64,000 bases of DNA. Origin: an uncultured bacterium (GTDB taxonomy: Bacteria; Omnitrophota; Omnitrophia; Omnitrophales; Abzuiibacteriaceae). Positions 1 through 56,165 of this stretch are shown here, piece by piece. Both the position numbers and the translations under genes were made by a program. The notes beneath the pieces are model-generated. The model was given only the letters and a program-made list of their open reading frames with translations, had not been told where the DNA came from and did no database searches. Positions within the stretch are counted from its first letter, which is position 1; every line of letters starts with the position of its first letter. The stretch lies in contig CAYLXA010000010.1 in the NCBI GenBank assembly GCA_964387845.1, positions 37,059 through 101,058 on the forward strand. Reading direction: 5' to 3'.

Positions 1-3000
1 AATGATCCTGATTCGAGCGTAAATATCTCACATATTGAAATAATTTCGCATTACGTTCATAAACACCTTCTTTTAGTTTGTCAGTACGCAAATGACCGCT
101 GACAGGATCCAAGGCATAAACTTTAGAGGAGCCCAATCCTGTGAAAAATAAAACGCCTTGAGTGAAGGTGATAAGCGGCGTTGAAACTATTTCATCGGGA
201 AATACTTGCTTCAAATCGAGAACGCCTTTTTCAAATTTGGCATGATCTGGCTTTCCGTCACTCATCCGAAACGCGTGAATATAAGCCTGGCCTTTCCGGG
301 CTCTGTCATCAACCGGATGGACATCTGTCTTTCGATAATAAGCAGCATACAAAGTTTGTCCATCTTCGCTCACGGCCAACGAGTTAATCCGTGCTTCCGG
401 GTCAATCTTTTTAACCTCGTCCGACAAATTTAAACGTCCGTTCGACCACTTTTCAGACATTAATGCTTTGCGATCTAAATCAACTGCTAAAATGTCACCC
501 GTGAACGAAGTCAAAATGTAAGCCGCATTTCCTCTGGCCACCATTTCACGAGGCATGTCCTGAGACGAGATATGAAAGAATCTCTCATTATTTTGCCGCA
601 ACTCGGAGCGGGTTTCGGGCTTCGCTTCCATTAGTTTTTTAATTTGAGCGCGTGCTTCTGCAATCATTTGATCCGTAATTTCACCCTGCTCTTTGCCGAG
701 CGCCCCCAAGATTTTCGAATCTAAATTGCTTTTTTGGCTGAGTTCTAAACTGTCATAACCGATGTCTTTTTTCAATTGAACGATCTTTTTATAATTAGAA
801 AAGGTGCGAAGAAAATTAACAACCGGATCCAGCGAGACATGCTGCCCATCGTCAGTTGCATAAGATCCCAGCAAATCCAGAGTGGTTGTTGCAATCATCA
901 ATTCAATTGCCTGGTTAAATTGATCTTCGCCGCGGATGCCTGCCTGCTCAAATTCCTGCCTTAATTTCTCCAATTGTTGAGCACGATGAATCGAAAACGC
1001 AAAAATGTGATGTTTAATGATTAATTTCAAAAGCGCATTGCTTGAAACGTCCATTTCACCGAAGTGAATATGATTGTCACTTAACACGCGAAATGATTCG
1101 AGTTCATGGCCCGGAAATGAATGGTCTCCATTCTCTTTGAACTGCATTTTGGTTTTCTTGCCGATATCATGAAGCACGATAAATGCTTCCAATATCGCGC
1201 GGTCTTTTGCATTCCAATCCTTAATCAGATTGATCGCATCTTTGGGCGCTGTAGTGTTTCGGTCAATTTGATTGAGTGCCGAGAGAATGGCTTGTAAATG
1301 GTCCTGAAGTTTAGCATTCTGGCCGCCTTCCCTATGAAACAGGCTGTGATAATGAGGCGTTTCCAAAAAATCCGCATATTGATCCGGAATGCCAGATAAC
1401 TGTTTCACCAATTCATCCAATGCTGAAGCCGGCCCATACTGGCGCAGCTCGGAGCGCTGTTCTTTTATCCATTGCACCAAACGCCGATAGTCAGTAACGC
1501 GAAGCGACATGCGGGAATTTCCGGGATTCGGCGCTATGATAAACTGGTCGGCGGTTCCTCGAACCTTTTGGTACACAAAGACGAGAAACATACCGTAAAA
1601 CCCCTGTGATTCCGGAAGGCCCCGGGCAACCCAATCCGCTTCAAGAATTGACCTGAGGACATTTGCCTTGATGGTCAACTCGTCCGGTTCCTTGTTTGCA
1701 TCTAATTGTGCGATGACGGATTGAAAATATTGCAGAACTACCGCGTTTCTCCGTTGACTTTGAAGATCATTCCCCAATCCTTCAAAAAGTTTTTGCGTAA
1801 AGCGCTGCGCATTACCCATTTGATTTAAATCACGGACCAATGCCCGATATTCGCGCCGGTAAGCAAGCCATTCGTCTTCCAAATGCATATCAACGGAGCG
1901 CACAACCTTCTTAAATGCTTCCGGACTTGTTATCAATGGCTCCATGTCTGATTTGCCATGCAATTGCTTAACAAAATCAATCAGATATTTCATGCCCTCA
2001 TCTGCTTCTCTGGCCAATGCGGCATTGATCAAGTGCGTACCTTCATGGATCATGACATATTTAATAATCAGAGGTGGAAAATGAAGCGCGAAGTCACGAT
2101 TGATAGTCACATGAGTCACGCTTCCGTCTAATGAAGTTTTTATACGTGCATACGAATGCCTCTGCAAAGAGCTTAATAAAGTGTCATCGAGAACGGGATT
2201 TTTTTTAAATGCCTCGATAAATTTTAATGCTGTTTTTTGATCGTCTAGGTTTGAAATTTCGGAAGCAATTTTTTCAAGGCGGTCCACAACCGCTTGAATT
2301 TCAGGGAGAAATTCGGGAGTTCTGATCCACCGCAAGATAGGCCATGCAGCAAATAAAGCGGTTGTTCCTGCACCGATTATTATTTGCCTGCGGCTTGGCA
2401 GCCAAAATTTCTTAGCAGGCTCTTCGCTTTTTACTCCCTGACGCCGCTCCTTATTTTTTCGTCCGTTCTCACTTGCGCGCAGCTCGGCGCGGGAATTTCC
2501 GCTTGGAAGCTTGATGTTAAATTCTGCGGCTGCGTGGGCCAGCGCACGGTCGCGGTGCTCTCCATACATCAAAGCTTCCCGATGATTGTTTAGGCCTTTT
2601 TTCTTCCGAATTCGCTTTGCTTTATGCACAGAAGCCCTGGTTGAGTACTTCAAAGAAAGCGGCGCTGCCGGAAGCTGAATGCCGAACCGTTTCGCAGCAT
2701 TGTAAAGCGCCCTGTCCCGATGCTTGCCTCGGGTTAACTCGCGGGCATGACTTTTCCATTTCTTCTTCTCGCGTTTTTTTAACTCCCTGCGAACAGATCC
2801 TTCGGTTGGATACTCAAAGGGCACACCTCTTTTTCTTAATTCGGAACGATGATTAGAAACATGAACTTTTGAGCGAACGGGAAGCTGCTCTGATAAAACC
2901 GCTTCGAGCATTTGATCTTTAATCCACCAATGAATCGGGCCATTTTGTTTTGTCCAATCACGAATCGCATAACCCACTTCCTTTTGAGCTCGAATAAATA

Positions 3001-6000
3001 AACTTTCCATATTCCCATTACCATTTTGTGCCCGCGCGATCTGCTCGGCGAGACCTCGATAAATTCTGGCCGGCTCGAACTGATTGCGCCCATTAGAAGA
3101 TTGATTTTTCTGAAACGTCGAAACCGCTTCCTCAATGCCGATATGTGTCAACGCATTCTTGGCATTAAAAGATGCGGCGATTCGATCTATTTGCCTTTTC
3201 ATTTTTCTAAAATATTTCTTCCACGAAACAAAAGCCGGTTTTTCTCCGGCGCGCCGGATATCGAGCCCCAGCAAGATGCGATTTTGAATCAATTCTCCTT
3301 CTGGAATTTGATCTAAATAAAGGCCGTATCGCCCCTCAAAATTCTTTTCGTATTCAATTAATTCATCGCGCCAATCTTCAAGTTGTTTGGCATCAACGGC
3401 ACCGATTAAATTTAGTTCATAAATCAGATGAAGAGCGCGGCCTGCAAGGCCCAACCACCTGACGGCGTGAAGTAATTCGGAAGATTGGGTGTGTTTTTTC
3501 GCTTTATTGAGCGAGCTTCGGATCTGAATTTTCAGAATTCTGGATTTTCTTTGGCGCCTGTCAAATTCTTCAAACTCATCTTGGCTCATAGTTGGCTCAA
3601 TAATTAGTTTGGCATTTTTAAATAACTGCTTGAGCGCTCGATCTTGATGCAAACCCCTCTCATCCGTCCATTGTTGCCATGTCTGCTCGGAGGATTTTGT
3701 CGGTGAAAGCGGCTTTCTATCCCGTCCGGCTTTCGTTATTTTAAGGTTTCCGGTCTCAGCCCAATAACCCAGCCGTTTTGCTTCAAGTTGAATCAGATAT
3801 CGCTCGGTTCCCTCAAGCGGACCCGGAACAAATTTTTGAACACCAACTAAACCACGGTCCGTCAGATAAGCACTATAAACAAAATCAACCAAATGGCCTT
3901 TTCGATCGGTCTTTGGATTGGTGCTATACAAATCGATCCGCTTTGTAAAAGTCCGGCCATCTTGCTTTTCTTGAACATTGCGAAACACCATGAAAAATCT
4001 TCGCGGCTTTTCCGGAGTACCTACGCCCGCCCACTTAGGCCGGAGCGGTATGAAAAACCTTGTGTTTTTTGGCTTTAAAAATATTCCTGTTTGATGGCGG
4101 TTATGGTTGTGGCTATGCGTTATGGTTTTTGGCTCAATGGGAAGCGGTTCCTCTCCCGTCTTGATCCACTGTTGTATGCGTCTTTGAAATTCTTCTTCAT
4201 CTTTTAGAAATTGCTTGGTTTCCAAATCCACGTAAAACACGACCTGATGCTCCGGTTTATTCGAAACTTTTCCGCGTGCGATTCTCCTCACCCGCCAATA
4301 AACATTCTGCTTGAATGAGAAAACGGTAATTTCTAGGTCATCCCGATTTGAAAAATATTGTGAGGGCAGATAGAGCCGGCGCATGTTTTTTGCTTTTGGT
4401 AAGGGGAAAAACACGGTATTGGCATATTTGCCTTTTCGGACATGTTTTAAAACAGCCTCTTTCAAAATTCTAACGGCAGGAGGGCCGGATTCGCGTTGAA
4501 AAGTTAAATGAAAAAGTTCCTTGCGGACCTGTTCAAACTGATCAGGAAAAATAATTCCTTGCTTAGGTTGAAAACCGGTTAACGCATCAAATTCGAGCGT
4601 TCCCACTGCAGGCCTGAAAGGAAGTAAATGAACCTGCATTTGCGGACGGCGTTTGTCATCCGCGGAATCCCGGGTCCATATGACGCGCGGTTCTCCGGTC
4701 GGATATTGAAAAAGAGCCCACTTAACCGGCACTTTTGCTTCATGCAATTGGCCGTTTCGAAGATAAGAAAAGGATGTAATGAAAGGCGGTCGTCTTTTTT
4801 GTAGTCGCTGAAAAATACTATCCTGGTATGCATGAAGGCGCCGCGGGATCATAAAGCCGGAGGGTTGCGCCCGTTGGCCCATTAAAAAATCCCGTAAAAG
4901 CTGAGAACGCGAGCTATCGCGAACTTTGTTTGTGCGAAAATGGTCGGCCAATTCCATTTCCCGAATCAAAAACCGGTAACTCTCCTGAGGATCCACTTGA
5001 ATTCCCAAACCTGCTTCGCCTCCGGTTGTGTTACCAATTTTCTGAGTTTGTGATGAAACATAAGAAATAAAACGGCCTTCCCCTGCCGCGGCCAATAATT
5101 TCTGTTCATCCCAATTGACCATGAATAAGCGCGGATCATCCGTTTTGAGGAGCGCTGAATGGCTTTCCGGTGACAGAAGCCAAGCACGCTCCAAAAGATC
5201 TGCCCGATCTAATAGTGCCGCTGTTGAAATCCGGCCAAGGCGAATAAAATCTGAAACAGTTATCTGATGCGCAAATAACTGACTCTCACGATATTGGCGT
5301 TCTTCATTCGAAAGCGAAGCCAGATAAGGAAGCGCGTCTGTTTGAGAAAGATCTTCTTCCTTTGAAATACGGCGCGACGAAGATGGGCGTGGCTTCGGAA
5401 CGATTTGCATTGTTTCGCTATTTTGACGCAGCTCGGAGCGGGATTGAGACTGTTTTTGGCGAATTAATTTCACGGCTTCACGAACGCTAACACCCTTGCC
5501 TCGCATATCCATGTAATCAAATGCTAAATCTGCGTTTCCGTTGCTTAATTTCCAGGCAATAAACGCATTAATCACCGCATACGGATACATCCATCCTTGT
5601 CCTTTGTCTGTTAATGGATTCGGATCAAAGACACCGAAATTTTGCCGAGTCATTCCAATGGCATTTTCTTCTGCATATTCGTAAGCTTTATCGCCGGCTT
5701 CCCTGAGACTTCGGTCCAATTCTGCAGGCAATTGATCAACATACATCATCATTACTTCCCCGATACTGGTACCTTTATTGAAATTTCCTTTTACATATTT
5801 TTCAAAGAAAGATTGTTTTAATATATTGAGATCCCCTTTACTTTTTTGCAAGATTCTTAATGCGGCATAACCTTCGGCAAGTAACGCATCGTTATCAATA
5901 TATTTCAAACCAGATCTAAGTTTTTTTCCAAATTTATGCGTCAATTCGTGAGCAATTAGAAGACGGAGTCCCCACCCAGAGCCCATGCGTTTTAATTCGT

Positions 6001-9000
6001 TAGGATTAATTCGAATTCCATAATCAAATCCCGTGGCAAGCGTGTCGGGAAGCATTGCCACAGCAGTCGGTTTATTTTTAATCCAGATTGTTACGCCGAC
6101 AGCAGCCAGACCGATAGCAGCAAAACCAAATAAAAAATCACGACGTGTTAGTTTTTGTTTCGATTTAGTTTTATTTTTTCTTTCTAAGAAATATTTGAGG
6201 GAAAATATTGAGAAAATTCCGCTCAACAATGATAAGAAAATGGATAAGAATGTTAGGTATGCTTTTGGCTGCTCGATTGCAACCCCTATTGAGTCTGTTA
6301 AACGATTAATCAATTCTTCTTTTTGTTGCACAGATAAATCAACGGCGTAACGATTTATAAAAAACTCAACTTCTTCCCGTACAATTTTTCTCTGTTCTTG
6401 GTCTAATTGAAAAACAAACGGTTTGTTCGATTCGCGCAACTCGGAACGGGATTTTCTCAAATCTATGTCAAGTAAATGCTGCAAAGCTAATCTCACCTTC
6501 TCTTCTTCCATGCCATCCAACTCTTGAAGTTGCCGGTCTGTAAATGCTTGGATCAAGCGTGCCATGGCTATGGACCGTGTAGAAAATTGATGCAGGTAAT
6601 CATCAACGATCTGTTTTTGTTTTGCGCTTACTTGTTCCATCGAAATTTCGTTACGAGGAGGAAGGTTAAATGGATTTGGCGAACTATCATTTTGATTTAA
6701 ATCATCGTAAGCTTGCCACAGAGCTCCGTTCTTACCGTAAAAATATTTGCCCCACAATTGCATTCTGATATCTGAAACTTCCTTCCATTCTTTGTCGGCA
6801 TCATTGATATCGGTTTCAAAAACGTATGGCGCTTTTTCCTCATTAATTCCAATCGACGCCTCAAGCGGACCAAAAATAAGCGCCCCAGATTCAGAATCGA
6901 CAGTGTTAAGGCCTTCTTGAACATAGCCATGCAGGGTATGATTCATGAGCCAATTGAAATAATCATGCACAACTTGATTAAATCTCTTCGCACTCATTGA
7001 TCTTCCATTCCAATGCTCTGCGAGAAGCCTGTCAAAAGCGCTTTTCTCTCTCGACGCGCCATTTTCTATAGGTTCTGAACGCAGCTCGGCCCTTGAGCCG
7101 AGCGGGCTCAAGGACGGCTTCGGCATCGCAGCTCGTTGCGGCAAAGTCCGAGCCGCCCTTTGTTGCAGCAGTTCCGACTTCGAATCGGCTGGAGTCGAAG
7201 TACGGACAGTCCTCAACTCCGCTCGAGCTGAGGACTCAGCGTGGACGGGGTTTAAATTAGGTGCTTTTTTTACAATTTTATTATCGCTATTTTTTATATT
7301 GACAAAGCCCTGATTGTTTGATATAAAAAAAGTCCCTTCGCGCGCAAACTTTAGGAAAGAAGAGAAAATACGATGACCAAAATTCCAAAGCCCGGCTCCG
7401 AATATTCTGAAGAGCGTGAATTCCGCGTCATTTTGGAGCATCTTGAAAGCCAGTTCCGTACTTTTGGTGAGGGGATGAACCGGATGGAACAAAAACTTCA
7501 AAAACTGGACGGCATTGATCGCAGACTGACTAGCGTAGAAGAAGATGTTGGATTGATTAAGGTCAATCTTAAACAAATTAATATTGATCTTAGAGAAGTC
7601 AGAGGTGATATCATGGTTCTGAAAACTGACGTTAGAGTCTTGAAAAGCGCTTTCAAACCATTCACCGCCCAAGTTTCCGATCACGAGCACCGGATTTCCG
7701 CTCTTGAGCGTTCCCGTTAAACGCAATTCCGATCGACTTAAAGGTAGCTGCAATACCTTCGTGATATGATTTTCAACCCATGGCCATAATTCTTTTGTGA
7801 TAGATTTGAAATAATCGGAAGAAACTTGATACGGGCGCGCGCCAAACTGGATCTGATTGGCCAAATCAACCAAATCTATTAAGTGCCGCGCATCGGCTCC
7901 GATGAGATAGAAAAGAAATAAGTATTCCTGGGCAATTGTCAAACCACCTTTATTTTGCCGACTAATGACCAGGAATGCGTGATATCTCAAAGATTCTTCC
8001 AAGATCACCTCTGGATTCCCTTTTGAATCAAACAAGCGAGCTTGTTTGATCCTTTGATTGAACAATGCCGTGTTGCGCTTTTGCTTTAATGCGTTTTCTA
8101 TAAACAACGGGTGATACAAATCTTGATTGTATGCCCAGTGCAGAAAACGGAATTGGCTGAAACTCTCGTAAAATTCGGATGAAATATTTTCAGCAGCTAA
8201 TCTTGAGATATCGGATAAATGTTTAACTGCAAAATTGGGAATTCCTGATTTTTGAGGCCACCTTCTTTCTCCTAACGGAATTTTCTGAAATTCTTGCATA
8301 ACACCTTGTAATTCTGAAACATTTTTCGGCATCCAATTTTTTGATTTTGACAAATAATGAACCCCATAAGCTTCCCTGACAATGACAGATGCCAAGTTTT
8401 CAACAAAATAATCCTCGGCATATGGAAATTGGTTAATCAATTTCACGGAATCAAAAAAAGATTTCACGTTGATTTCTAAATCGATTTTTCCGTTCTCATC
8501 AATTGTTTTTTGAAAATGAATCCCCAAATTAGCTGCTTCCTGCGGCAGCAGTTTAGCCTGTTTGACTAATTCGGAGTAATTCTTAAGAATGTCAGTATTC
8601 GGATATCCTTTGGCAATTAACCAGTCGATTGTTTTTTGAATAGCGTTTTGAACACTTGCTAAATCGGCACGCGAAAGTTGAATCTCGTCCATCAGGGATT
8701 TATTTTGTTTAAAAGATTTTCGAACGGCGTAAATCGTACCTGCTATCAATGAACCGCTGACGGTTAAGCCTAGCCCATATTTAATAACGGTTCTTCGTGA
8801 TAAATCCGTTCCTCCTTTTGTCTCTTTTGTTTTATCTTTTTCTTTTGTTCTCAGCTCGGACTTCTTTTGAGTATTTCGTATCTCGTGAAACGTATCTCGG
8901 TGCAGCGGCTCAGCGTGGTTTGCTTCGGGATTCGTGACCCGCGTATCGTGTTTCGCAACCGATTCACGATTCACGAACGACGATTCACTGGATTGATTTT

Positions 9001-9178
9001 GCACCAAACTTCTCAACTCGGAAAGTGCGGCGGGAGAATTGGCGGTGAGGCGCGGGACGTTCAGCGACGGAACGGAGGAAGCATAGGAATTAGGAATGGA
9101 CGGAGATAGTCCGATGGTGTTCTGGATTGAAAAGCAGAAGATGATCAGAATCGCGGTAATTTTAAGGTATTGCTTCAA
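1..9178 (-). CDS. giant multidomain membrane-anchored protein, 3'-partial (>=3059 codons; stop codon beyond window start). N to C: signal-anchor TM, S/P-rich linker, TM, alpha-rich domain, linkers carrying R[SA]ELR motifs, TM pair plus HELTH zincin-like module, ~980-aa unknown region, basic repeat region, TM plus HEGTH zincin-like module, HD phosphohydrolase domain, beta-propeller-like repeats
   Basis: Hand translation of minus strand: no TTA/CTA/TCA in frame (plus triplets starting at positions = 2 mod 3) from 9196 down to 1; upstream in-frame stop at 9197-9199. TTG at 9178-9176 is preceded by AGGAAA (9190-9185, 6-nt spacer) and followed by K-rich then hydrophobic N-terminus (LKQYLKITAILIIFCFSIQNTIG). 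HELTH at 5936-5950, HEGTH at 2033-2047, HD motifs (LFHREGG, VLHDIGK at ~1166-1171, FPGHELES, IIKHHIF, TTTLDLLG) between ~1000 and 1400. Absent from the ORF track because no stop codon lies inside the window. Confidence 0.6.
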   Translation of the reverse strand, partial: MKQYLKITAILIIFCFSIQNTIGLSPSIPNSYASSVPSLNVPRLTANSPAALSELRSLVQNQSSESSFVNRESVAKHDTRVTNPEANHAEPLHRDTFHEIRNTQKKSELRTKEKDKTKETKGGTDLSRRTVIKYGLGLTVSGSLIAGTIYAVRKSFKQNKSLMDEIQLSRADLASVQNAIQKTIDWLIAKGYPNTDILKNYSELVKQAKLLPQEAANLGIHFQKTIDENGKIDLEINVKSFFDSVKLINQFPYAEDYFVENLASVIVREAYGVHYLSKSKNWMPKNVSELQGVMQEFQKIPLGERRWPQKSGIPNFAVKHLSDISRLAAENISSEFYESFSQFRFLHWAYNQDLYHPLFIENALKQKRNTALFNQRIKQARLFDSKGNPEVILEESLRYHAFLVISRQNKGGLTIAQEYLFLFYLIGADARHLIDLVDLANQIQFGARPYQVSSDYFKSITKELWPWVENHITKVLQLPLSRSELRLTGTLKSGNPVLVIGNLGGEWFESAFQDSNVSFQNHDITSDFSKININLFKIDLNQSNIFFYASQSAINAVQFLKFLFHPVHPLTKSTELAFKMLQNDAEFTLFRIFGAGLWNFGHRIFSSFLKFAREGTFFISNNQGFVNIKNSDNKIVKKAPNLNPVHAESSARAELRTVRTSTPADSKSELLQQRAARTLPQRAAMPKPSLSPLGSRAELRSEPIENGASREKSAFDRLLAEHWNGRSMSAKRFNQVVHDYFNWLMNHTLHGYVQEGLNTVDSESGALIFGPLEASIGINEEKAPYVFETDINDADKEWKEVSDIRMQLWGKYFYGKNGALWQAYDDLNQNDSSPNPFNLPPRNEISMEQVSAKQKQIVDDYLHQFSTRSIAMARLIQAFTDRQLQELDGMEEEKVRLALQHLLDIDLRKSRSELRESNKPFVFQLDQEQRKIVREEVEFFINRYAVDLSVQQKEELINRLTDSIGVAIEQPKAYLTFLSIFLSLLSGIFSIFSLKYFLERKNKTKSKQKLTRRDFLFGFAAIGLAAVGVTIWIKNKPTAVAMLPDTLATGFDYGIRINPNELKRMGSGWGLRLLIAHELTHKFGKKLRSGLKYIDNDALLAEGYAALRILQKSKGDLNILKQSFFEKYVKGNFNKGTSIGEVMMMYVDQLPAELDRSLREAGDKAYEYAEENAIGMTRQNFGVFDPNPLTDKGQGWMYPYAVINAFIAWKLSNGNADLAFDYMDMRGKGVSVREAVKLIRQKQSQSRSELRQNSETMQIVPKPRPSSSRRISKEEDLSQTDALPYLASLSNEERQYRESQLFAHQITVSDFIRLGRISTAALLDRADLLERAWLLSPESHSALLKTDDPRLFMVNWDEQKLLAAAGEGRFISYVSSQTQKIGNTTGGEAGLGIQVDPQESYRFLIREMELADHFRTNKVRDSSRSQLLRDFLMGQRAQPSGFMIPRRLHAYQDSIFQRLQKRRPPFITSFSYLRNGQLHEAKVPVKWALFQYPTGEPRVIWTRDSADDKRRPQMQVHLLPFRPAVGTLEFDALTGFQPKQGIIFPDQFEQVRKELFHLTFQRESGPPAVRILKEAVLKHVRKGKYANTVFFPLPKAKNMRRLYLPSQYFSNRDDLEITVFSFKQNVYWRVRRIARGKVSNKPEHQVVFYVDLETKQFLKDEEEFQRRIQQWIKTGEEPLPIEPKTITHSHNHNRHQTGIFLKPKNTRFFIPLRPKWAGVGTPEKPRRFFMVFRNVQEKQDGRTFTKRIDLYSTNPKTDRKGHLVDFVYSAYLTDRGLVGVQKFVPGPLEGTERYLIQLEAKRLGYWAETGNLKITKAGRDRKPLSPTKSSEQTWQQWTDERGLHQDRALKQLFKNAKLIIEPTMSQDEFEEFDRRQRKSRILKIQIRSSLNKAKKHTQSSELLHAVRWLGLAGRALHLIYELNLIGAVDAKQLEDWRDELIEYEKNFEGRYGLYLDQIPEGELIQNRILLGLDIRRAGEKPAFVSWKKYFRKMKRQIDRIAASFNAKNALTHIGIEEAVSTFQKNQSSNGRNQFEPARIYRGLAEQIARAQNGNGNMESLFIRAQKEVGYAIRDWTKQNGPIHWWIKDQMLEAVLSEQLPVRSKVHVSNHRSELRKRGVPFEYPTEGSVRRELKKREKKKWKSHARELTRGKHRDRALYNAAKRFGIQLPAAPLSLKYSTRASVHKAKRIRKKKGLNNHREALMYGEHRDRALAHAAAEFNIKLPSGNSRAELRASENGRKNKERRQGVKSEEPAKKFWLPSRRQIIIGAGTTALFAAWPILRWIRTPEFLPEIQAVVDRLEKIASEISNLDDQKTALKFIEAFKKNPVLDDTLLSSLQRHSYARIKTSLDGSVTHVTINRDFALHFPPLIIKYVMIHEGTHLINAALAREADEGMKYLIDFVKQLHGKSDMEPLITSPEAFKKVVRSVDMHLEDEWLAYRREYRALVRDLNQMGNAQRFTQKLFEGLGNDLQSQRRNAVVLQYFQSVIAQLDANKEPDELTIKANVLRSILEADWVARGLPESQGFYGMFLVFVYQKVRGTADQFIIAPNPGNSRMSLRVTDYRRLVQWIKEQRSELRQYGPASALDELVKQLSGIPDQYADFLETPHYHSLFHREGGQNAKLQDHLQAILSALNQIDRNTTAPKDAINLIKDWNAKDRAILEAFIVLHDIGKKTKMQFKENGDHSFPGHELESFRVLSDNHIHFGEMDVSSNALLKLIIKHHIFAFSIHRAQQLEKLRQEFEQAGIRGEDQFNQAIELMIATTTLDLLGSYATDDGQHVSLDPVVNFLRTFSNYKKIVQLKKDIGYDSLELSQKSNLDSKILGALGKEQGEITDQMIAEARAQIKKLMEAKPETRSELRQNNERFFHISSQDMPREMVARGNAAYILTSFTGDILAVDLDRKALMSEKWSNGRLNLSDEVKKIDPEARINSLAVSEDGQTLYAAYYRKTDVHPVDDRARKGQAYIHAFRMSDGKPDHAKFEKGVLDLKQVFPDEIVSTPLITFTQGVLFFTGLGSSKVYALDPVSGHLRTDKLKEGVYERNAKLFQYVRYLRSNQDH
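7079..7250 (-). other. GC-rich hairpin-dense segment inside the giant ORF, encoding a disordered linker with three R[AS]EL[RL]-type motif copies
   Basis: Mutually exclusive stems gctcggc(ccttga)gccgagc and ccttgagcc(gagcg)ggctcaagg at 7083-7111; further stems acttcga/tcgaagt (~7174-7198) and agtcctca/tgaggact (~7208-7237). Confidence 0.4.
7299..7327 (+). promoter_or_regulatory. sigma70-type promoter: -35 TTGACA (7299-7304), 17-nt spacer, extended -10 TGaTATAAA (7319-7327), with an AT-rich UP-like tract at 7262-7298
   Basis: Exact hexamer matches and spacing read directly from the sequence; lies inside the giant minus-strand ORF and points at the 7373 ATG. Confidence 0.55.
7373..7720 (+). CDS. 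small coiled-coil protein (115 aa) encoded antisense to, and codon-aligned with, the giant minus-strand ORF; could be an overlapping antisense gene or a shadow ORF
   Basis: ORF track entry (MTKIPKPGSEYSEEREFRVILEHLESQF...). RBS AGGAAAGAAGAG at 7353-7364, 8 nt before the ATG. Near-consensus sigma70 promoter 46 nt upstream. Leu and Ser codons avoid TTA/CTA/TCA, so the opposite-strand frame stays open. Confidence 0.45.
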   Translation: MTKIPKPGSEYSEEREFRVILEHLESQFRTFGEGMNRMEQKLQKLDGIDRRLTSVEEDVGLIKVNLKQINIDLREVRGDIMVLKTDVRVLKSAFKPFTAQVSDHEHRISALERSR

Positions 9179-9188
9179 GCGAAGTTTC

Positions 9189-9207
9189 CTACTTTCTTAA
9201 GAAGTAG
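9189..9207 (-). promoter_or_regulatory. 5'UTR stem-loop (CTACTT-TCTTAAG-AAGTAG) overlapping the RBS of the giant ORF
   Basis: Inverted repeat ctactt / aagtag around a palindromic CTTAAG core; no U-run follows on the minus transcript, so it is unlikely to be a terminator. Confidence 0.35.
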
Positions 9208-9275: not shown

Positions 9276-9551
9276 TTATCTGAAATCTTTATACTTATCA
9301 TTCAGCGTTTTTTGGATATCTTTTACCTGCGCTTTTGCCTGCTCGCCCAACCCAATTTGGGTCTGAGTATAACCGCCGGTTAATTGATCAAACAGGCCTT
9401 GTGAGGCGGCCTGCTTTCCCTGCTTCGGATGTTTTTGTTCCTTCTTCCCGATCCACTGGTCTAAGTAGCCCATTTTCCCCGCGATTAAGAACATAATGAT
9501 AATCAGCGCAATTAAAAGATTGATTAAATTGAACCCTTTTTCGTTTTTCAT
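9276..9551 (-). CDS. small prepilin-like N-terminal domain protein (91 aa; G-FNLIN motif, no Glu5)
   Basis: Internal ATG of track ORF 9276..9740 preceded by AAAAGGAGACATC; N-terminus MKNEKGFNLINLLIALIIIMFLIAG resembles a class III signal peptide/pilin helix; the upstream Cys/Arg-rich extension is rejected. Confidence 0.5.
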   Translation of the reverse strand: MKNEKGFNLINLLIALIIIMFLIAGKMGYLDQWIGKKEQKHPKQGKQAASQGLFDQLTGGYTQTQIGLGEQAKAQVKDIQKTLNDKYKDFR

Positions 9552-11904: not shown

Positions 11905-12474
11905 TCAAATATCCTTCGACGCGGTATAAATAATGCAGGTGATGACAACCAGCGCCGAAAGAACAAGGCGAGCGACAACATGCTGATTAAACGCATACCC
12001 ATGATGATCAAATTCCAATTGAACGGACTTTCCGTCAAACTGGATGGTCTCCGGTTTTTCCGATTCCATTTCAACTTCAATGCCGCCGGCCAAAACACCG
12101 TAATAAGTTTTGCCGATTCCGGTTCCTACAATTACCGCGATTAAAATAGCACCAAAGACCCAGGCATTAAGCACTTGCTTGCGCCGAACCTGGCGGGCTT
12201 GTTCTTCCAAAATCGCTTTGTCGGCCAGCGCGCGCGATGCAGCGGCGGTTTTGATGGCTTTTTCGCGGAACCAATTGACGTCTTCCAGCGTTTTGGCTTC
12301 GTCAACAAACTTAATAAATTCTTCAAGCCGCTCCCTCTTCACTTCGTCCGTTTCAGTTTCGACAAACCGGTGGAATGCGGCTTTGGCTTCGGGAAGCGCG
12401 ATTTCCTCTTGGGATTGGAACTCTTTTTTCCGGTCTCGGGCAAGCTTCTCTATATCAGAATCTTCGGGGTCCAT
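11905..12474 (-). CDS. hypothetical protein with N-terminal coiled coil and TM segments
   Basis: 189-aa ORF; charged N-terminal half followed by hydrophobic helices. Confidence 0.45.
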   Translation of the reverse strand: MDPEDSDIEKLARDRKKEFQSQEEIALPEAKAAFHRFVETETDEVKRERLEEFIKFVDEAKTLEDVNWFREKAIKTAAASRALADKAILEEQARQVRRKQVLNAWVFGAILIAVIVGTGIGKTYYGVLAGGIEVEMESEKPETIQFDGKSVQLEFDHHGYAFNQHVVARLVLSALVVITCIIYTASKDI

Positions 12475-12488
12475 ACACTACTTATCGG

Positions 12489-13184
12489 CTAGTGCGCTAC
12501 TTTTTTCCAATCATCCAAAATTCGGCATTGGTGGCCGAATTTAATGATACGCGTCGCGATTTTCTCGATAAAGACAGGCTCGTGCGTCACAATCAGCATC
12601 GTGAGGCCGTCTTTGGCAAGGTCCGACATCACTTTGACGATTTCTTCCTTCATTTCGGGATCAAGACTGGAGGTCGGCTCATCAAACAGGACCGCTTTCG
12701 GATGCATGGCAAGCGCTCTTGCGATTCCGACGCGCTGCTGCTGGCCGCCTGAAAGTGATTGTGGATGTGCGGCTGCTTTTTGCTCCAAGCCGACGTGTTT
12801 AAGTAATTTCAGTGCATTTTCGCGGGCTTGCTCCGGATGTTCTTTCAATACTTGGATTGGACCGATCGTGAGATTTTCAAGCACTGTGAGATGCGGAAAC
12901 AAATTAAAAAACTGAAACACAAATCCCAACCGCTCGCGGACCGATTTTATTTTTAGTTTTTCTTTGCGGACATCCATATCGGCATAAAGCTCGACATCGC
13001 CTACGCTCACCGTGCCCTGCTGAAATGGTTCTAAATATGTGAGGCAGCGCAGAAAAGTGCTTTTCCCGACACCGGACGGGCCTTTGAAAACGATGACGTC
13101 ACCTTCATCCACCGTCAAATTTAAATCTTTGACGACCTCGTGATTCCCGTAAAATTTGGAGAGATTCTTAACTTCGATGCGCAT
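12489..13184 (-). CDS. polar amino-acid ABC transporter ATP-binding protein
   Basis: Walker A GPSGVGKST, ABC signature LSGGQQQR, Walker B VLFDEPTS. Confidence 0.85.
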   Translation of the reverse strand: MRIEVKNLSKFYGNHEVVKDLNLTVDEGDVIVFKGPSGVGKSTFLRCLTYLEPFQQGTVSVGDVELYADMDVRKEKLKIKSVRERLGFVFQFFNLFPHLTVLENLTIGPIQVLKEHPEQARENALKLLKHVGLEQKAAAHPQSLSGGQQQRVGIARALAMHPKAVLFDEPTSSLDPEMKEEIVKVMSDLAKDGLTMLIVTHEPVFIEKIATRIIKFGHQCRILDDWKKVAH

Positions 13185-17694: not shown

Positions 17695-18063
17695 TTAAGG
17701 GGTAAGGGATAAGCTTTTGCGAAGTCCGGAAAGCATTCTTCCGATTTCGTTACAGTAGTTAATAAGCATTTCATAATGTTCATGATCAACATAATTTAAA
17801 TCCCTGCTTAAAAGTAATAAATATTTGGTTTCTTCAAGTGAAGAATTCGACAAATTCAGAAAATGCAAATAATCTTTTGTACTTTTTCGTTTTTGTCCTT
17901 CTACAATGTTTGTGGCAATCGAAACTGTGCTTCTTCGTATTTGAGAAATAATTCCAAATTTTTCATCATTTGGAAAACGTTTCGTTAACTTATAAATTTC
18001 TAAAATTAAAGTGTGAGATTTTTGCCAAACTTTTAAATCTTGAAATGTTTCTATCCTATACAT
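17695..18063 (-). CDS. four-helix-bundle protein (TIGR02436-like)
   Basis: 122 aa; [30 protein letters not shown] typical of this family. Confidence 0.7.
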
Positions 18064-23468: not shown

Positions 23469-23885
23469 TTATGCCCGCTGCGTCACCAGACTATAAAGCC
23501 TGAAAGTCCGCGCCGCACCTTTCTCACTCCAATTGATAGTCACTAAAACTTGTAAAGGATCCGTGCCGGTTCCGGCCGGAAATGTCACGCTGACGGATTG
23601 GCTTGGAAGTCCCGAAAACGTTTGCCCGGAAACCCAACTGGTCCAATACGTTGAATCGCTTGCCGAATTACTTCCGGTCAAGCCGTTTGCATTTGCAATG
23701 CGCCGAACTTCTTCCATCGTTCTTTCGGCATCATTAGCAGCCGTAATTTTATTCTGCGCGAACGAGCTTAAACTTGCTGCATACTGAAAGCTGGCGCCGA
23801 CAGCGGCAATTACAACCGTAATCAAAGTAATAGCGAGTAAAATTTCAACAACCGTAAAACCAGATTTTTGATTGCGGTAATTCAT
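23469..23885 (-). CDS. prepilin-type N-terminal cleavage/methylation domain protein (pilin/pseudopilin)
   Basis: SGFTVVEILLAITLITVVIAAV: G-F-T-V-V-E motif. Confidence 0.75.
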   Translation of the reverse strand: MNYRNQKSGFTVVEILLAITLITVVIAAVGASFQYAASLSSFAQNKITAANDAERTMEEVRRIANANGLTGSNSASDSTYWTSWVSGQTFSGLPSQSVSVTFPAGTGTDPLQVLVTINWSEKGAARTFRLYSLVTQRA

Positions 23886-27034: not shown

Positions 27035-28207
27035 TTAAGCCAAAAAACTATAAGCCGGTAAATTGTCTCCGATCAGCGGAAGCGCGTATTCGCCAAATGC
27101 TTTGGTGACAAAATTTCCCTCACGATTGATAAACCGATCCGGAAGCTTCTTTTCGGTAGCGGCCACGTGCTCCAGCGGAATTTGAGAATATAAAACGCGG
27201 TATGGCTTTGTTGAAACCCGCTCGATGGCAACCATGACACCCGAATAATCGGATCTTGCCAAGCGGACCGCGTGCCGGCCGCACTGAAAAGCTTCTTTTT
27301 GATCAATTTTCGAAATATACGGCATCGACATGCGCTGAAGGGTACCGGGTTTATCAAACCGAGCGCGAATCTTGAGTTTCTGGGCAATAAGTCCGCACAA
27401 ATACTGCGCTGCGCCTTCGACATACACATGGCCGAATTTATCTTTTTTAACGGCTTGATTGGCAGAACCGATTCGCTTTCCGTTTTTGTCGCGGATAGTC
27501 TCCGAGATAACGATCAATGCATAACCAAATTTCTTATGAATTTTCCGGACATCTTGTATGAATTTCTTTTCATCAAACGCCCGCTCCGGAAAATACAAAA
27601 GATGTGGGCCATCCTCCGGCTTCTGTATGGCCAGCGTCGAAGCGGCCACGATCCAGCCCGAGTTTCTGCCCATCACTTCAATAATTTTGACCGGATCCGT
27701 CGTCCTTGCGGCACGCGTATCCACGGAAGCTTCCTGGGCAGCAATTGCAAAAAAACGCGCGACACTGCCGTAACCCGGCGCATGGTCCATGCCGGGCAAA
27801 TCGTTATCAATCGTTTTAGGAATTGCAATGACTTGAAGGTCTTGCTCATCTGCGCGTGCCGTTTTCTCCAAGAGGAGCCCCGTTGCGGCCGAATCATTGC
27901 CACCGATTAAAAACAAGACGCTGATTTTCTTTTTACTCAACGTTCTAACAATGGCTCTTGCTTCTCTAACGTTTAATTTATGCCGGCAGGTTCCGAGCGC
28001 CGAAGACGGTGATTGCTTTAAATTTTGGATGGTTTTTTTCGGAAGATGCGTTAAATCAATCCAATCTGATTTTAAAAGCCCGAGGACACCAAATTTGACA
28101 CCGTAAAGCTTTGAGAATTCCCTGCTCGATTCGATCACGCCCGCCAAACTTTGATTGATAACGGCTGTCGCGCCGCCGGACTGCAAAATAACCGCACGTT
28201 TTTTCAT
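27035..28207 (-). CDS. pfk: 6-phosphofructokinase (likely PPi-dependent type)
   Basis: ILQSGGATAVINQS and LFLIGGNDS PFK motifs; 390 aa. Confidence 0.75.
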   Translation of the reverse strand: MKKRAVILQSGGATAVINQSLAGVIESSREFSKLYGVKFGVLGLLKSDWIDLTHLPKKTIQNLKQSPSSALGTCRHKLNVREARAIVRTLSKKKISVLFLIGGNDSAATGLLLEKTARADEQDLQVIAIPKTIDNDLPGMDHAPGYGSVARFFAIAAQEASVDTRAARTTDPVKIIEVMGRNSGWIVAASTLAIQKPEDGPHLLYFPERAFDEKKFIQDVRKIHKKFGYALIVISETIRDKNGKRIGSANQAVKKDKFGHVYVEGAAQYLCGLIAQKLKIRARFDKPGTLQRMSMPYISKIDQKEAFQCGRHAVRLARSDYSGVMVAIERVSTKPYRVLYSQIPLEHVAATEKKLPDRFINREGNFVTKAFGEYALPLIGDNLPAYSFLA

Positions 28208-28980
28208 GATGAATGTTTCATTATAAATTGAATAGGCCGTTCGTAAAAATCCGGACCGGCTTGAAACGGCAGTTCATTATGTGTCCCGCCCCGAACCTCA
28301 AATAATTCTTTCGGCTGAGGCGCTGCTTCAAAAAGTTGTTTTCCCATTTCGAACGGACAGATTTCATCGTCGGTGCCGTGAACAATCAATAAAGGTGATT
28401 TCAATTTCGATACTTTTTCGTCGTTTCGCATTTGAAATCCCGAAAGCCATCCCGACGGAATGAAAGGATAATGCTTTTTTGCCATATCGGCAAGCGAAGT
28501 AAAGGGGGCTTCTAAAATTACCGCTTTGTATGCCGAATGAGACGCAAGCTCTAAGATTGGGGCCGCGCCGATGGATTCGCCGTATAGAATAATATCCGAA
28601 CTTTTAATTGTTTTTTCTTTTGTAAGCCAGTCAAGCCCCGATTGCGCATCAGCATACAAGTCTTTTTCGCCCGTGATTTTTCCTTCACTTTTTCCGTAGC
28701 TGCGATAATCCAGCAAAAAAACCGAAAACCCGCGCTTGATCCATTCTTCCGCTTTAAATAAGCGGTCCGCGATATTGCCCGCGTTGCCGTGTAAAAAGTA
28801 AACAACGCCTTTGGGCCCGGGCGCAGGCAAAAACCATCCGGAGATTTTAACATTGTCAGATGTCATAAGGAGAACCGTCTCCGACTTAAGGCCTAAATTC
28901 TCAGGCAAAACACCGTAGGATCCGGCCGGAAAGAAGATAAACGATGCGATCATGATGTTCAGGAGTTGTGCGATATTCAT
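28204..28980 (-). CDS. alpha/beta hydrolase (S9/dienelactone hydrolase-like)
   Basis: GESIGAAP nucleophile elbow; HGTDDE near C-terminus. Confidence 0.65.
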   Translation of the reverse strand: MNIAQLLNIMIASFIFFPAGSYGVLPENLGLKSETVLLMTSDNVKISGWFLPAPGPKGVVYFLHGNAGNIADRLFKAEEWIKRGFSVFLLDYRSYGKSEGKITGEKDLYADAQSGLDWLTKEKTIKSSDIILYGESIGAAPILELASHSAYKAVILEAPFTSLADMAKKHYPFIPSGWLSGFQMRNDEKVSKLKSPLLIVHGTDDEICPFEMGKQLFEAAPQPKELFEVRGGTHNELPFQAGPDFYERPIQFIMKHSS

Positions 28981-29065: not shown

Positions 29066-29458
29066 TTAGGCAGATTTTCTGGTCGTCGCGAATCCTAAAA
29101 ACCGGGAAACCAAAGTCGTTTCCACAGAAAATGCGGAATTGCGCCGAAGAGATTCAAAACTAGCGTCGGCCTTGGCTTGTACGTCACGATTCAGCATATC
29201 GCTCAAAGCCGGCAGCATATCGTCCGCACGCGCCTCAACCGAAATTGATTTTGTCCGAATCTCCTCAATTTCATACTTCGCTGATTCAGGCTGTAATGCT
29301 TCGGTTGTAATATTGATGCCGGCCGAATGAGAAGCGCCCGGCAAAATAATCTGCGGATTGAATACTTCGGCTTCGTGAATCGGCTGAGCAAACATAGGCT
29401 GGCCGAATATAAAGACACATACCAATAAAATCTTAAGGAACTTAATCGGGTTTTTCAT
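29066..29458 (-). CDS. small secreted hypothetical protein
   Basis: Signal-peptide-like N-terminus (MKNPIKFLKILLVCVFIFGQPMFA). Confidence 0.4.
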   Translation of the reverse strand: MKNPIKFLKILLVCVFIFGQPMFAQPIHEAEVFNPQIILPGASHSAGINITTEALQPESAKYEIEEIRTKSISVEARADDMLPALSDMLNRDVQAKADASFESLRRNSAFSVETTLVSRFLGFATTRKSA

Positions 29459-29910
29459 CTTCTCTTATCCTTTCTGGTTCTGCCCGAGCTCACTTCAAGC
29501 AAAGGCATAAGAGAAGAAACGGTGGGATTTATTTCAGCGTCTCTTTCAAAATGCCCCTCTGAGAATCTTTCGAAAAAGAATCTCTCAGAAGGGCTTTGAA
29601 AGAGTCCTTCTAAGAAGATTGGCAACCCAGCCTTCCTCACCCGTCCGTGTAGGAACCGTGGCTTTGCGTCACCGGATTACTCCCCCGCTAAACTGAATAG
29701 CGAGTCCGCCAAGATTTGTGGCGGAAGTTTTGCCTTTTTCAGACCTCCTAAAATGTGAGCTTTCAACGAGCAACTTGCTTAATAAAAAGGTGCCCCATGA
29801 CTTTTTTAATGTCAAGAGTAACACCCCTCTTTTTTCAATACAAAAGGGAGTTATTTTAACGCTTAAATATGTATGTAAGTCATTAATATATAATGACTTA
29901 CATCAATTTA

Positions 29911-35169: not shown

Positions 35170-35432
35170 CCGTTTTAGGCTCTTGAGTTTTGCCTCATTC
35201 TACGCTCAGTCGCTTACGCGCTGGGCTTCGAAGAGCTCTACGAAGCCAAGCCGCGAAGGACTTGGCGAAGTAGAGGCCTTACTCTTTCGAGTAATTTGCC
35301 TCCGCCATACAGCGTAGCGGATCCGCCACGCTTTGTGGCGGACTTTCGTTCAGAGATAAGATGATAAAACTAAAAAAAATTTTACCATATTGAGAAGATA
35401 TTGCAAAAATTAAGATAAAAAACAGATAAAAC

Positions 35433-37136
35433 TTACCGCTTTGAATCAGTTAAGGCGGATTTTAATTCAGATTGGGCTTTTAAGCATTTGTCGCCCACGC
35501 AAGACGGCCAAACAGGCCTATCCGATCGCGAAAGGCTTAAATGATCAAGGTAAAATGTTCCCAATTTCGGGTTTGTACTTCTTTCTAACTTCAAAGTAAA
35601 CTCGGGCGATTCGCCGGGCTGCAGCTCTCCTGAAACCGGTACCTCATAAAGCTGCCATGCAGTGGCAACATTTTTCGCAATCACAGGATGAGCGACCAGC
35701 GTTGCGCCCCTCCATTCAACTTTTAATTCCTTCGGGAAAGGCTGGGATGATCCCTTTAAATAGAACTTTAAGGTTTTGAAATCATTCGGATCAATGGCCG
35801 CAATTTCAAAAGTTTTCGGATTGATGCTGACCGTTACTTGGCAAACCGGTTTCTGTTTCGACTCAAGGTCGTAATCAATTTTTAAAGATTTTCCCCGAGG
35901 ATCATTAAGCGCATCGCCACGGCTGAAAGCATAAGAGCATTCGCCATATGACTTAACCGAATAAAACTCGCTTGGCCGGCTGTTCGAAATCTTCTGAGGA
36001 GAAATGTTTTGATTAAAATCAGCCAAAACGAAATCTTCTATTAATTCGCAAGTTTGCGAACAATCTCCGGCAAATTCAGCCCGGTATTGACAAATCTCGT
36101 CGCCAATACCCAAACATTCATCTTGGTACAAACACTCTGTTCCGTCATCGCAAAACGAGCCGTTGTCGCATTCTTCCCCTTCATCTTCCACATTATCGCC
36201 GCAGCAAGATGGCTGCCCGGACGGATCGCAATCGCTGCAATCGGGCAAGCAAGTTTGTGCACAAATATAACCCTCACTGCTTGCGCAACCGATATCTCCG
36301 TTCACATCGCAAACTTCATCTCCGGTGATTTGACCATCTCCGCAGAAATTGGACGTCACACATTCACAGCCCGCACATACGTCCCCGCCTGTGCAATCAC
36401 CGTCGGCTTCACATTCTTCACCCGGATCGACAATTCCGTTTCCGCAAATTCCCGTCGGAACACAGCTTCCTGACGGATTGCATGCTTGGTTAGGACCGCA
36501 TTGAATGCAAATCGGATTTGCGCCGCATTGAGTGGCAGTATTTGTACACCCAAAACTTTCATTGCAAATATCTTCCGTACACGAAATCCCGTCATCACAA
36601 AGCGTATGATTCGGCGCATATTGGCATCCGTTCACCGGGTCGCAGGAATCTACCGTGCAGGCAAATGTGTCATCACAATCGAGAGGCATGCCTGCGGTGC
36701 AGGTACCGGCCTGGCAGGCTTCATCACCGTTGCAAACCGTGCCGTCGGCGCAGGAAGTGCCGTTTGAAACGGGCGCATGCGTACAGTTACCAGCGTTACA
36801 CGCATCCGTTGTGCATGGATTGTTGTCATCACAGCCACCGGGACATGGCGCGGCGCATACGTTCGCCCAAAATTGAATATCGAGCCCGTTAACGGCGCCG
36901 TCTACATTTAGATCGGCTGAACAAAATTCTTGCGGTGACGGAGGCGGCGGAAACCCGAGTAAAATGTTGATGAAAAGATTGAAATCGTCCTGGCCTTCGG
37001 CGGGTTCGATTGTGCCGTCATTATCGATATCGCAGAGTGTGCAAGCGACGCCGGCATGAGCAGGAAGAGAGCATGAAAATAGAACTGTAAAGAAAAACGT
37101 GGAAATGATTAAAAGAAGCTTAGACTTGCGAATCAC
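35433..37136 (-). CDS. secreted dockerin-like plus cysteine-rich-repeat protein
   Basis: Signal peptide; two dockerin-type Ca-binding repeats (DIDNDGTIEPAEGQDDFNLFINILLG; DLNVDGAVNGLDIQFWANV); then many C-x-D/N-x-N-x-C-T-x-D-x-C repeats resembling the Myxococcus cysteine-rich repeat. Confidence 0.6.
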   Translation of the reverse strand: MIRKSKLLLIISTFFFTVLFSCSLPAHAGVACTLCDIDNDGTIEPAEGQDDFNLFINILLGFPPPPSPQEFCSADLNVDGAVNGLDIQFWANVCAAPCPGGCDDNNPCTTDACNAGNCTHAPVSNGTSCADGTVCNGDEACQAGTCTAGMPLDCDDTFACTVDSCDPVNGCQYAPNHTLCDDGISCTEDICNESFGCTNTATQCGANPICIQCGPNQACNPSGSCVPTGICGNGIVDPGEECEADGDCTGGDVCAGCECVTSNFCGDGQITGDEVCDVNGDIGCASSEGYICAQTCLPDCSDCDPSGQPSCCGDNVEDEGEECDNGSFCDDGTECLYQDECLGIGDEICQYRAEFAGDCSQTCELIEDFVLADFNQNISPQKISNSRPSEFYSVKSYGECSYAFSRGDALNDPRGKSLKIDYDLESKQKPVCQVTVSINPKTFEIAAIDPNDFKTLKFYLKGSSQPFPKELKVEWRGATLVAHPVIAKNVATAWQLYEVPVSGELQPGESPEFTLKLERSTNPKLGTFYLDHLSLSRSDRPVWPSCVGDKCLKAQSELKSALTDSKR

Positions 37137-48421: not shown

Positions 48422-48422
48422 A

Positions 48423-49411: not shown

Positions 49412-49420
49412 TAGAAAAAT

Positions 49421-50619: not shown

Positions 50620-50630
50620 TTTTTCTCTCC

Positions 50631-51221: not shown

Positions 51222-51222
51222 A

Positions 51223-52991: not shown

Positions 52992-52992
52992 A

Positions 52993-56162: not shown

Positions 56163-56165
56163 ACT

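Follow-up and report, generated by a model that had tools for sequence, protein, structure and literature searches.

Long precursor proteins with several unrelated parts are known from viruses and bacteria. Viral polyproteins have consensus junctions, cut by a protease that they themselves encode and formed by Q and G for picornavirus 3C and by a dibasic pair and a small residue for flavivirus NS2B-NS3. The gingipain/HagA polyproteins of Porphyromonas, which are type IX cargo, have a Sec signal, Arg/Lys cuts at domain borders and a C-terminal export domain. MARTX toxins use type-1 secretion, and their joints are a loosely defined Leu-containing linker; polymorphic toxins have a single variable C-terminal toxin and an immunity gene. 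Oomycete RxLR and Plasmodium PEXEL (RxLxE/Q/D) are motifs of eukaryotic pathogens that occur once per protein, within tens of residues of the signal peptide, as a site of proteolytic maturation or sorting. MARTX effectors are released by inter-domain processing, and their mosaic repertoire varies between strains by in-frame recombination (PMC4468845). For polymorphic toxins, Zhang et al. (2012, PMC3482391) describe diversity created by cassette recombination and releasing peptidases as common. In giant proteins of Omnitrophota cleavage has been suspected, with the cleavage points stated to be unknown (10.1101/2023.11.21.568195). Here we describe a pentapeptide, R[SA]ELR, that recurs in a giant mosaic open reading frame (ORF) within a stretch of 64,000 nucleotides (nt) from an uncultured bacterium (assembly GCA_964387845.1, contig CAYLXA010000010.1, positions 37,059 to 101,058 of the forward strand; hereafter the window). 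In the protein family defined by this ORF, [R/K]-[S/A]-E-L-R is a universal, peptide-selected connector between autonomous cassettes, and it is the place of cassette exchange between related genomes. On sequence evidence we give a probability of about 0.5 to the reading that the motif is cut by a specific endopeptidase, in a polyprotein that is secreted and carries multiple cargoes, and that its coding sequence doubles as an in-frame recombination joint.

The open frame (window 2..9196, minus strand) crosses the left end of the window; its TTG start at 9178 is preceded, 8 nt upstream, by the Shine-Dalgarno-like AGGAAA. The full-length protein, P0001, has 17 x[SA]ELR copies in 4114 amino acids (aa). 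In working mode the closest system is MARTX, exemplified by Vibrio vulnificus RtxA1, and the likeness is a functional analogy only: a very large composite chain with several unrelated, here putative, effector domains, and a mosaic array of unrelated domains exchanged in frame. Membership in MARTX fails. Pfam scans of the window protein and of full-length P0001-P0003 gave no match to RTX/HemolysinCabind or glycine-rich repeats, which MARTX toxins have at both ends, or to Peptidase C80, the inositol-phosphate-activated cysteine protease that makes the inter-domain cuts in MARTX, and there is no Cys outside the signal peptide. In contrast to MARTX, the leader here is of the Sec type, the joint is a strict pentapeptide and the C-terminal domain is predicted to be Rossmann-like.

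With viral polyproteins the family shares one ORF, unrelated putative products and the same short consensus at every junction, where a basic residue would be P1 and a small or polar residue comes next. It differs in that the gene is chromosomal and bacterial, most members have no in-cis protease and the cassettes are hypervariable. The signal peptide, multi-domain precursor and conserved C-terminal domain resemble gingipain-type proteins. However, the predicted fold of the latter domain is alpha/beta Rossmann-like and not the beta-sandwich C-terminal domain (CTD) of the type IX secretion system, no Pfam CTD matches it, the cargo consists of enzymes and regulators rather than adhesin domains, and an Arg-specific cysteine protease is impossible in cis because the chain has no Cys. 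RxLR and PEXEL are similar only in the position of the first copy, which lies ~25-65 aa downstream of the signal peptide; the spacing R-x-E-L-R, the presence of up to 17 copies per protein and the bacterial origin differ, and there is no homology.

Unlike in polymorphic toxins, an internal array of up to ~15 cassettes varies here and the C-terminus is conserved. Pfam scans found no RHS or filamentous-haemagglutinin repeats, and no immunity-like gene lies downstream at the three syntenic loci described below; in L001 and L002 the downstream gene is LeuC (aconitase family). The giant ORFs of Omnitrophota ('Archaeovorins', dockerin-type) probably belong to the same phylum and are likewise large, poorly annotated and poorly conserved, with transmembrane (TM) segments. 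The proteins described here are ~10x smaller, at 1.4-4.2 thousand aa, and no C39, S8 or SecA-like domains were found in them. In the library searched, literature on RSELR, RAELR and KSELR consisted of unrelated alginate-lyase papers only, none with the motif in this sense, and a 2026 preprint on long proteins of Omnitrophota has no mention of motifs or cleavage.

The family was defined by an exhaustive hidden Markov model (HMM) search of 1.84 billion representative proteins with the shared C-terminal domain, and comprises nine proteins in all, P0001 and eight others. All 11 in-frame copies of the motif reported in the initial annotation of the window were confirmed on the minus strand (Table 1). 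Nine of them match R[SA]ELR strictly, against 0.016 expected from the protein's own composition (Poisson probability of at least nine, 2.2e-22), which bears out the original estimate of an excess far above chance. Every ELR tripeptide of the window ORF (11/11) lies inside a motif copy. The nine family members together contain 80 strict [RK][SA]ELR sites in 19,432 aa, where shuffles predict 0.23. Because one-residue variants are only mildly enriched in the same proteins (24 observed, ~10 expected), the site is sharply defined.

Outside the giant proteins the motif was not seen. It occurs nowhere else in the window in a six-frame scan, in none of the 30,548 aa of neighbouring non-giant ORFs from this and related genomes, and in none of the 77,863 aa from 80 unrelated bacterial loci; an equal frequency in unrelated proteins, which the initial annotation considered as a possible sign of artefact, is thus not observed. 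A 4347-aa PKD/Big_9 adhesin in the related contig L090 has no copy, and its Cys content is closer to normal (8 in 1857 aa), which argues that the motif is specific to the mosaic family and not to large proteins generally. The logo of 38 unique sites reads [A/S]-[R/K]-[S/A]-E-L-R; the next residue is small or polar, with Pro at none of the sites. S, P, T and A abound in the upstream flank and S, K, N and Q in the downstream one, while aromatic residues are depleted on both sides; the placement of the copies between modules in Ser/Pro/Lys-rich flanks, as first described, is therefore supported.

The motif coding sequence varies synonymously. All six Arg, all six Leu and all six Ser codons are used at motif sites, with three Ala codons and both Glu codons, and DNA repeats around the copies end within ~27 nt. 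The codon variation together with the lack of long DNA repeats places the conservation at the peptide level, as was initially proposed. The frame and strand of the motif are always the coding ones. That the motif is a compositional or low-complexity artefact, or a leftover of recent DNA duplication, has a negligible probability. Its sole support is a weak 27-nt similarity shared by five copies, and it is refuted by the enrichment of ~350- to 550-fold over composition-matched shuffles, by the differing codons and by the absence of long repeats; moreover, distant paralogues keep the motif.

P0002 (3275 aa) and P0003 (2294 aa) were the first two relatives to be found. Together with P0001 they lie at one and the same chromosomal position in three related genomes. 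The gene order is TruA, ABC transporter, MR_MLE, DUF819, a small pilin-like gene, the giant gene and LeuC. Among the three genomes the flanking genes share 59-92% identity across 94-100% of their length, and the small prepilin-like gene upstream of the giant is kept in all three with 59-60% identity. In the giant protein only ~15% is matched; for ~85% of the window's protein neither of the others has a counterpart. BLASTP homology blocks start or stop at the motif. At three independent junctions the DNA identity of the left flank, motif and right flank is 86/87/17%, 14/87/100% and 93/87/33%; the drop of identity at the motif therefore indicates in-frame cassette exchange with the crossover inside its 15 nt. 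Orthologues and distant paralogues retain the motif, including at corresponding positions, so the loss from orthologues envisaged in the initial annotation did not appear.

Codon use inside the motif is not neutral, which qualifies the initial account of codon differences: the variation is real, with a bias towards CGC-TCC-GAG-CTG-CGC. Over the window (596-9025) and the loci L001-L003, L084, L085, L088 and L090, motif codons differ from the rest of the same genes in CGC (45% vs 20%), TCC (44% vs 15%), GAG (58% vs 26%), CTG (47% vs 13%) and GCA (0% vs 27%). Optimal-codon use was rejected as the cause of the bias, as the preference of ribosomal and housekeeping genes differs. A genome-wide Chi-like DNA site was ruled out as well, since the consensus is confined to the giant gene in the window. 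We read the bias as a sign that the joints have a common origin, or have evolved in concert, by way of recombination.

Both the bias and the breakpoints could also be produced if the 15-nt sequence were a DNA recombination signal for in-frame shuffling and the peptide merely its tolerated translation. All three independent junctions have their breakpoint exactly in the motif, the codon bias is strong and unlike that of the rest of the genes and of ribosomal and housekeeping genes, the consensus is restricted to the giant gene within the window, and a serine recombinase lies between two motif-bearing genes in L084. Nevertheless we regard this explanation as improbable. Sites differ from the DNA consensus at ~3 positions each, and synonymous differences are ~10x commoner per position than amino-acid-changing ones; among them are synonymous changes of two bases at once (TCN/AGY, CGN/AGR, CTN/TTR), a pattern that the specificity of a DNA-binding protein would not produce. 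Few variants alter the amino acid (24 one-off against 80 intact sites, with ~10 expected by chance), the motif keeps to the coding frame and strand, and no recombinase is conserved beside the giant genes in the neighbourhoods examined. Microhomology at a peptide-constrained joint, combined with selection for intact modules, suffices for the breakpoints. Since synonymous changes dominate and paralogues with ~24% identity in their C-terminal domains keep the motif, a DNA-level signal is not the primary cause. In L084 (18134-20842) the serine recombinase is accompanied by a relaxase-like gene between the two motif-bearing giants, which hints at a mobile element.

The segments between motif copies have a median length of 161 aa, and each Pfam-recognisable domain lies wholly within one of them. 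The module types include RidA, NUDIX/NUDT9-like ADP-ribose pyrophosphatase, methyltransferases, P-loop kinases, an HD hydrolase, HPr-like modules, Pol-beta nucleotidyltransferase, sigma-70 region 4, RpoA-CTD-like modules and HExxH modules led by two arginines (RR) or a TM segment. Of the segments, 60 have at least 60 aa, and among these only four families occur in more than one member, the C-terminal domain being one of the four. On the window protein, Pfam and NCBIfam found nothing beyond sub-threshold HD and twin-arginine translocation (Tat) matches, and PADLOC gave a generic methyltransferase and HD similarity with no known defence system. A PDB search with the HPr-containing module gave no match.

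Where borders can be placed by alignment, they coincide with the motif. In P0006 the first residue past ELR aligns with residue 1 of the stand-alone proteins RidA, TdcF, YjgF and PH0854. The NUDT9-like module of P0003 (aa 87-390) can be aligned with the human NUDT9 crystal construct from residue 6 of the latter onwards, over the entire fold. In P0008, ...PRAELR precedes QVTRREFLKRTAVGITAAMSGRILPAQVAS, and a putative twin-arginine signal of textbook form, TRREFLKRTAVGITAAMSG...AQVAS, begins two residues past the motif; Tat substrates carry an N-terminal S/T-R-R-x-F-L-K signal with a moderately hydrophobic h-region. The window protein and P0002 have RR-plus-hydrophobic segments 19-31 aa past a motif; Pfam TAT_signal scores the internal RR segments at 15.6-18.4 bits (cut-off 22.7), and only a cut at the motif would make them N-terminal. 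Given such exact borders, the modules look like complete precursor proteins, some of them self-targeted. The P0003 module is a complete NUDT9-type enzyme whose best solved relatives are eukaryotic, namely the NUDT9-H domain of the TRPM2 channel and human NUDT9. A 17-aa spacer (..G-[TA]-A-S-A-S-..-A-K) separates adjacent motif copies in P0002 (aa 1757-1773) and P0003 (aa 1263-1279); such spacers may be 'double joints' or released mini-peptides.

We infer cleavage at the motif from several observations. The motif is sharp in an all-or-none manner and complete proteins start exactly at the next residue; the Tat and TM signals make sense only as new N-termini; and the next residue is small or polar, the flanks are linker-like and the cargo is unrelated. 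Of the three roles first suggested, polyprotein processing, a sorting or secretion motif and a docking motif, the first fits best, on account of the complete modules right past ELR and their own Tat-like or TM signals. A purely structural role as a hinge or linker cap, or a co-translational pause or skip signal on the ribosome, would involve no partner protein. The motif is helix-compatible, is predicted to be helical in the C-terminal domain and recurs regularly at the median spacing given above. On the other hand, a structural role would tolerate conservative substitutions, which an almost all-or-none motif does not; known nascent-chain arrest or skipping peptides have a conserved upstream context, which is not conserved here; and the motif is absent from every other examined protein of these genomes. 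We consider a hinge or pause signal hardly probable, slightly less so even than a DNA recombination signal.

A more serious competitor of cleavage comes from the ends of the proteins. In all nine members the C-terminal domain closes with an invariant R[SA]ELR, behind which come 8-9 residues and a terminal Ala, as in the tails AAWAQLTAA, KTWATAVAA, TRWRQAIAA and similar ones. The C-terminal domains of distant paralogues are only ~24% identical, yet the motif is kept. The predicted fold is generic, Rossmann-like and alpha/beta, the motif sits in its predicted helices, the invariant last copy included, and in some members extra copies occur within the domain at differing, non-conserved positions. 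At the other end, a Sec-type signal peptide starts the five members that have their start on record, the window protein included. P0002 is likewise led by a signal peptide after upstream extension of its called start, as is the second motif-bearing giant in L084. P0003 has a leader homologous to that of the window protein, and so does L002, where it precedes the called start. Cysteine is nearly absent: there are six in 19,432 aa across the family (0.03%), compared with 1.08% in neighbouring ORFs, and the window ORF has one in 3065 aa, within the signal peptide. The giant genes have a GC content of 43% and housekeeping genes one of 46%.

These features would also suit an uncut short linear docking motif that one partner binds repeatedly while the modules stay covalently linked. 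The partner could belong to the secretion or translocation machinery, or be a chaperone dedicated to these proteins, a tether at the surface or the C-terminal domain of the family itself, and docking would hold or guide a very long, Cys-free, unfolded chain during export. The location of the motif in predicted helices of the conserved C-terminal domain, the invariant copy 8-9 aa from the C-terminus, the gain and loss of copies at differing places in that domain, and the search for a protease in members and neighbouring genes, which found none, all favour docking, and Cys avoidance with a signal peptide suits transport of an unfolded chain. It does not account for the exact start of modules, complete in the manner of stand-alone proteins, at the residue that follows ELR, and a canonical-looking Tat signal two residues past the motif is pointless unless it becomes N-terminal. 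The cargo, moreover, consists of unrelated cytoplasm-type enzymes with no reason for tethered action. We consider docking unlikely, though it is the strongest of the alternatives.

Several results weigh against cleavage. HExxH is absent from six of the nine members (P0002, P0003, P0004, P0005, P0007 and P0009), and no conserved peptidase or secretion gene lies beside the giant genes, whose genomic contexts differ. The C-terminal domain has no conserved catalytic set, only the generic predicted fold, and for the motif in its predicted helices a role in binding would be no worse a fit than one as a scissile site. Internal RR or TM segments can serve as internal topogenic signals without cleavage. 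The codon bias indicates that something beyond peptide selection acts at the motif, and no model explains why cytoplasm-type domains are led by a Sec signal peptide.

Two candidate enzymes were discarded. The two zincin-like modules of the window protein, which the initial annotation had put forward as a candidate processing protease, do not hold as a general processing enzyme, because six members are without HExxH; a zincin would have HExxH in a recognisable fold with a third ligand, whereas the assignment itself rests on the HExxH strings and a single sub-threshold YgjP-like match (E = 0.023), and a single-sequence AlphaFold2 model of an HExxH module was unusable (pLDDT 40). A protease within the C-terminal domain was rejected because of the missing catalytic residues and the lack of Cys.

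With cleavage as the preferred reading, the following scheme can be proposed. A dedicated site-specific endopeptidase would recognise the pentapeptide and cut after its last Arg, and the precursor, as a polyprotein, would give rise to many separate proteins. Some released pieces would have Tat or TM signals of their own that come to lie at the N-terminus only once the chain is cut. The motif coding sequence would supply microhomology for in-frame cassette exchange, and this could explain both the breakpoints and the shared GC-rich codon form. In the most speculative step, the precursor or its pieces would be exported as a swappable cocktail of effector-like cargo. Such export is suggested by the signal peptide, the Cys avoidance, the C-terminal domain and the predator or parasite lifestyles that have been proposed for Omnitrophota (PMC10066038). 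We put forward more tentatively than cleavage itself the full picture of an undescribed bacterial polyprotein system, in which the endopeptidase would free up to ~17 unrelated proteins from a Cys-free precursor led by a signal peptide, as a rapidly reshuffled, effector-like anti-prey or anti-host cargo with Tat/TM re-targeting of some pieces.

The mosaic family is small and lineage-restricted, and it probably comes from Omnitrophota, on indirect evidence. P0009 is listed by NCBI under a Candidatus Omnitrophica metagenome-assembled genome (MAG), and among GTDB species representatives an Omnitrophota MAG gives the best match, with 69% identity, to the LeuB of the window. Several paralogues can occur per genome, as P0002, P0005 and a 4159-aa neighbour share one 525-kb contig. 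With the C-terminal domain as query, a word-index homology search gave no matches and a GTDB genome scan found none; a metagenome scan returned only the already known JGI contig. Viral contigs and plasmids (tblastn) had no match to the family, and a synthetic concatemer of all motif sites, used as a query for motif-rich proteins, retrieved P0009 only. The contig of P0009 contains a complete rRNA operon (L088 7836-14156), and its 23S gene has a group I intron (12300-12950, Rfam 52 bits) that encloses a 166-aa open frame.

The features of the window are listed in Table 1. The strict motif is absent from all proteins of its two-partner secretion cluster. Besides the prepilin-like gene next to the giant, the window encodes a second small prepilin-type protein, and in L085 a PilT/T2SSE-type ATPase precedes the paralogue P0005. 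The c-di-GMP-I riboswitch lies between a TpsA-like ORF and a 130-aa ORF without Pfam match, which is followed by an alpha/beta hydrolase. No reverse transcriptase is visible near the bAvd-type gene. The respiratory block is a complete aerobic one, with a cytochrome oxidase of the aa3 type. Such a block is unusual for many Omnitrophota but has been reported for the class Aquiviventia in this phylum, and an aa3-type oxidase for most of that class (PMC10066038).

Table 1. Giant ORF, motif copies and other features of the 64,000-nt window
Feature	Position	Strand	Remark
Giant mosaic ORF	2..9178	minus	first 3059 codons of the 4114-aa protein P0001
N-terminal Sec-type signal peptide or anchor MKQYLKITAILIIFCFSIQNTIGL	9107..9178	minus	contains the protein's only Cys
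Motif copy 1, LSELR (position-1 variant)	9011..9025	minus	cassette breakpoint relative to P0003
Motif copy 2, KSELR	8849..8863	minus	motif also at the corresponding position of P0002
Tat-like RR motif and hydrophobic segment DLSRRTVIKYGLGLTVSGSLIAG...	8705..8806	minus	starts 19 aa past copy 2
Motif copy 3, RSELR	7721..7735	minus	identity to P0002 gene DNA 86% upstream, 87% in motif, 17% downstream
Motif copy 4, RAELR	7211..7225	minus	
Motif copy 5, RAELR	7079..7093	minus	
Motif copy 6, RSELR	6434..6448	minus	
Hydrophobic hairpin, TM segment then Tat-like TRRDFLFGFAAIGLAAVG segment	6065..6256	minus	Pfam TAT_signal and Rieske-Tat matches sub-threshold
HExxH string 1 (HELTH)	5936..5950	minus	within module aa 916-1246
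Motif copy 7, RSELR	5426..5440	minus	
Longest inter-motif segment, ~860 aa	2849..5425	minus	without recognisable domain
Motif copy 8, RSELR	2834..2848	minus	
Motif copy 9, RAELR	2477..2491	minus	
Tat-like RR motif and hydrophobic segment LPSRRQIIIGAGTTALFAAWPIL	2312..2401	minus	31 aa past copy 9
HExxH string 2 (HEGTH)	2033..2047	minus	weak YgjP-like metallopeptidase match around it (E = 0.023)
Motif copy 10, RSELR	1442..1456	minus	DNA is the exact consensus CGCTCCGAGCTGCGC
HD-type phosphohydrolase module (Cas3-HD-like)	893..1327	minus	confined to one inter-motif segment
Motif copy 11, RSELR	596..610	minus	
Small prepilin-like (N_methyl) gene	9276..9551	minus	directly upstream of the giant gene; context only
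bAvd / 23S-rRNA-intervening-sequence-type four-helix-bundle gene	17695-18063	minus	between LeuB and ThiG
Second small prepilin-type (N_methyl) protein	23469-23885	minus	
S33/S9-type alpha/beta hydrolase	28204-28980		
130-aa ORF	29066-29458		
c-di-GMP-I riboswitch	29618-29744	minus	Rfam 42.6 bits
Two-partner secretion cluster	29911-42368	minus	
TPS-domain protein (TpsA-like ORF)	29911-35169	minus	
Dockerin/Dicty-repeat protein	35433-37136	minus	
TPS-domain protein	37407-40367	minus	
ShlB/FhaC-type TpsB	40641-42368	minus	
Aerobic respiratory block	48110-61565	minus	COX1/2/3, CtaA/CtaB, SCO1, DUF420, split cytochrome b, 935-aa multihaem cytochrome c
ORF6N/Rha-type phage regulatory protein	63187-63687	minus	at the window's right end

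For the giant proteins of Omnitrophota and other uncultured predators or symbionts, which may act as one chain or be cut into many products, the motif provides a candidate junction signal that is statistically unambiguous. It splits such giants into domain-sized units for structure prediction, makes an exact prediction for N-terminomics and offers a peptide bait for the protein that reads it. The near-absence of Cys and the pattern of breakpoints at the motif are unusual evolutionary signatures in themselves. The family is very rare and essentially unannotated, and may be read as a bacterial multi-cargo polyprotein with a strict pentapeptide joint. If cleavage is true, the recognition sequence and its enzyme would form a new pair and a possible tool, and the family would be the equivalent, on a bacterial chromosome, of the viral polyprotein strategy, joined to a MARTX-like exchange of cassettes.

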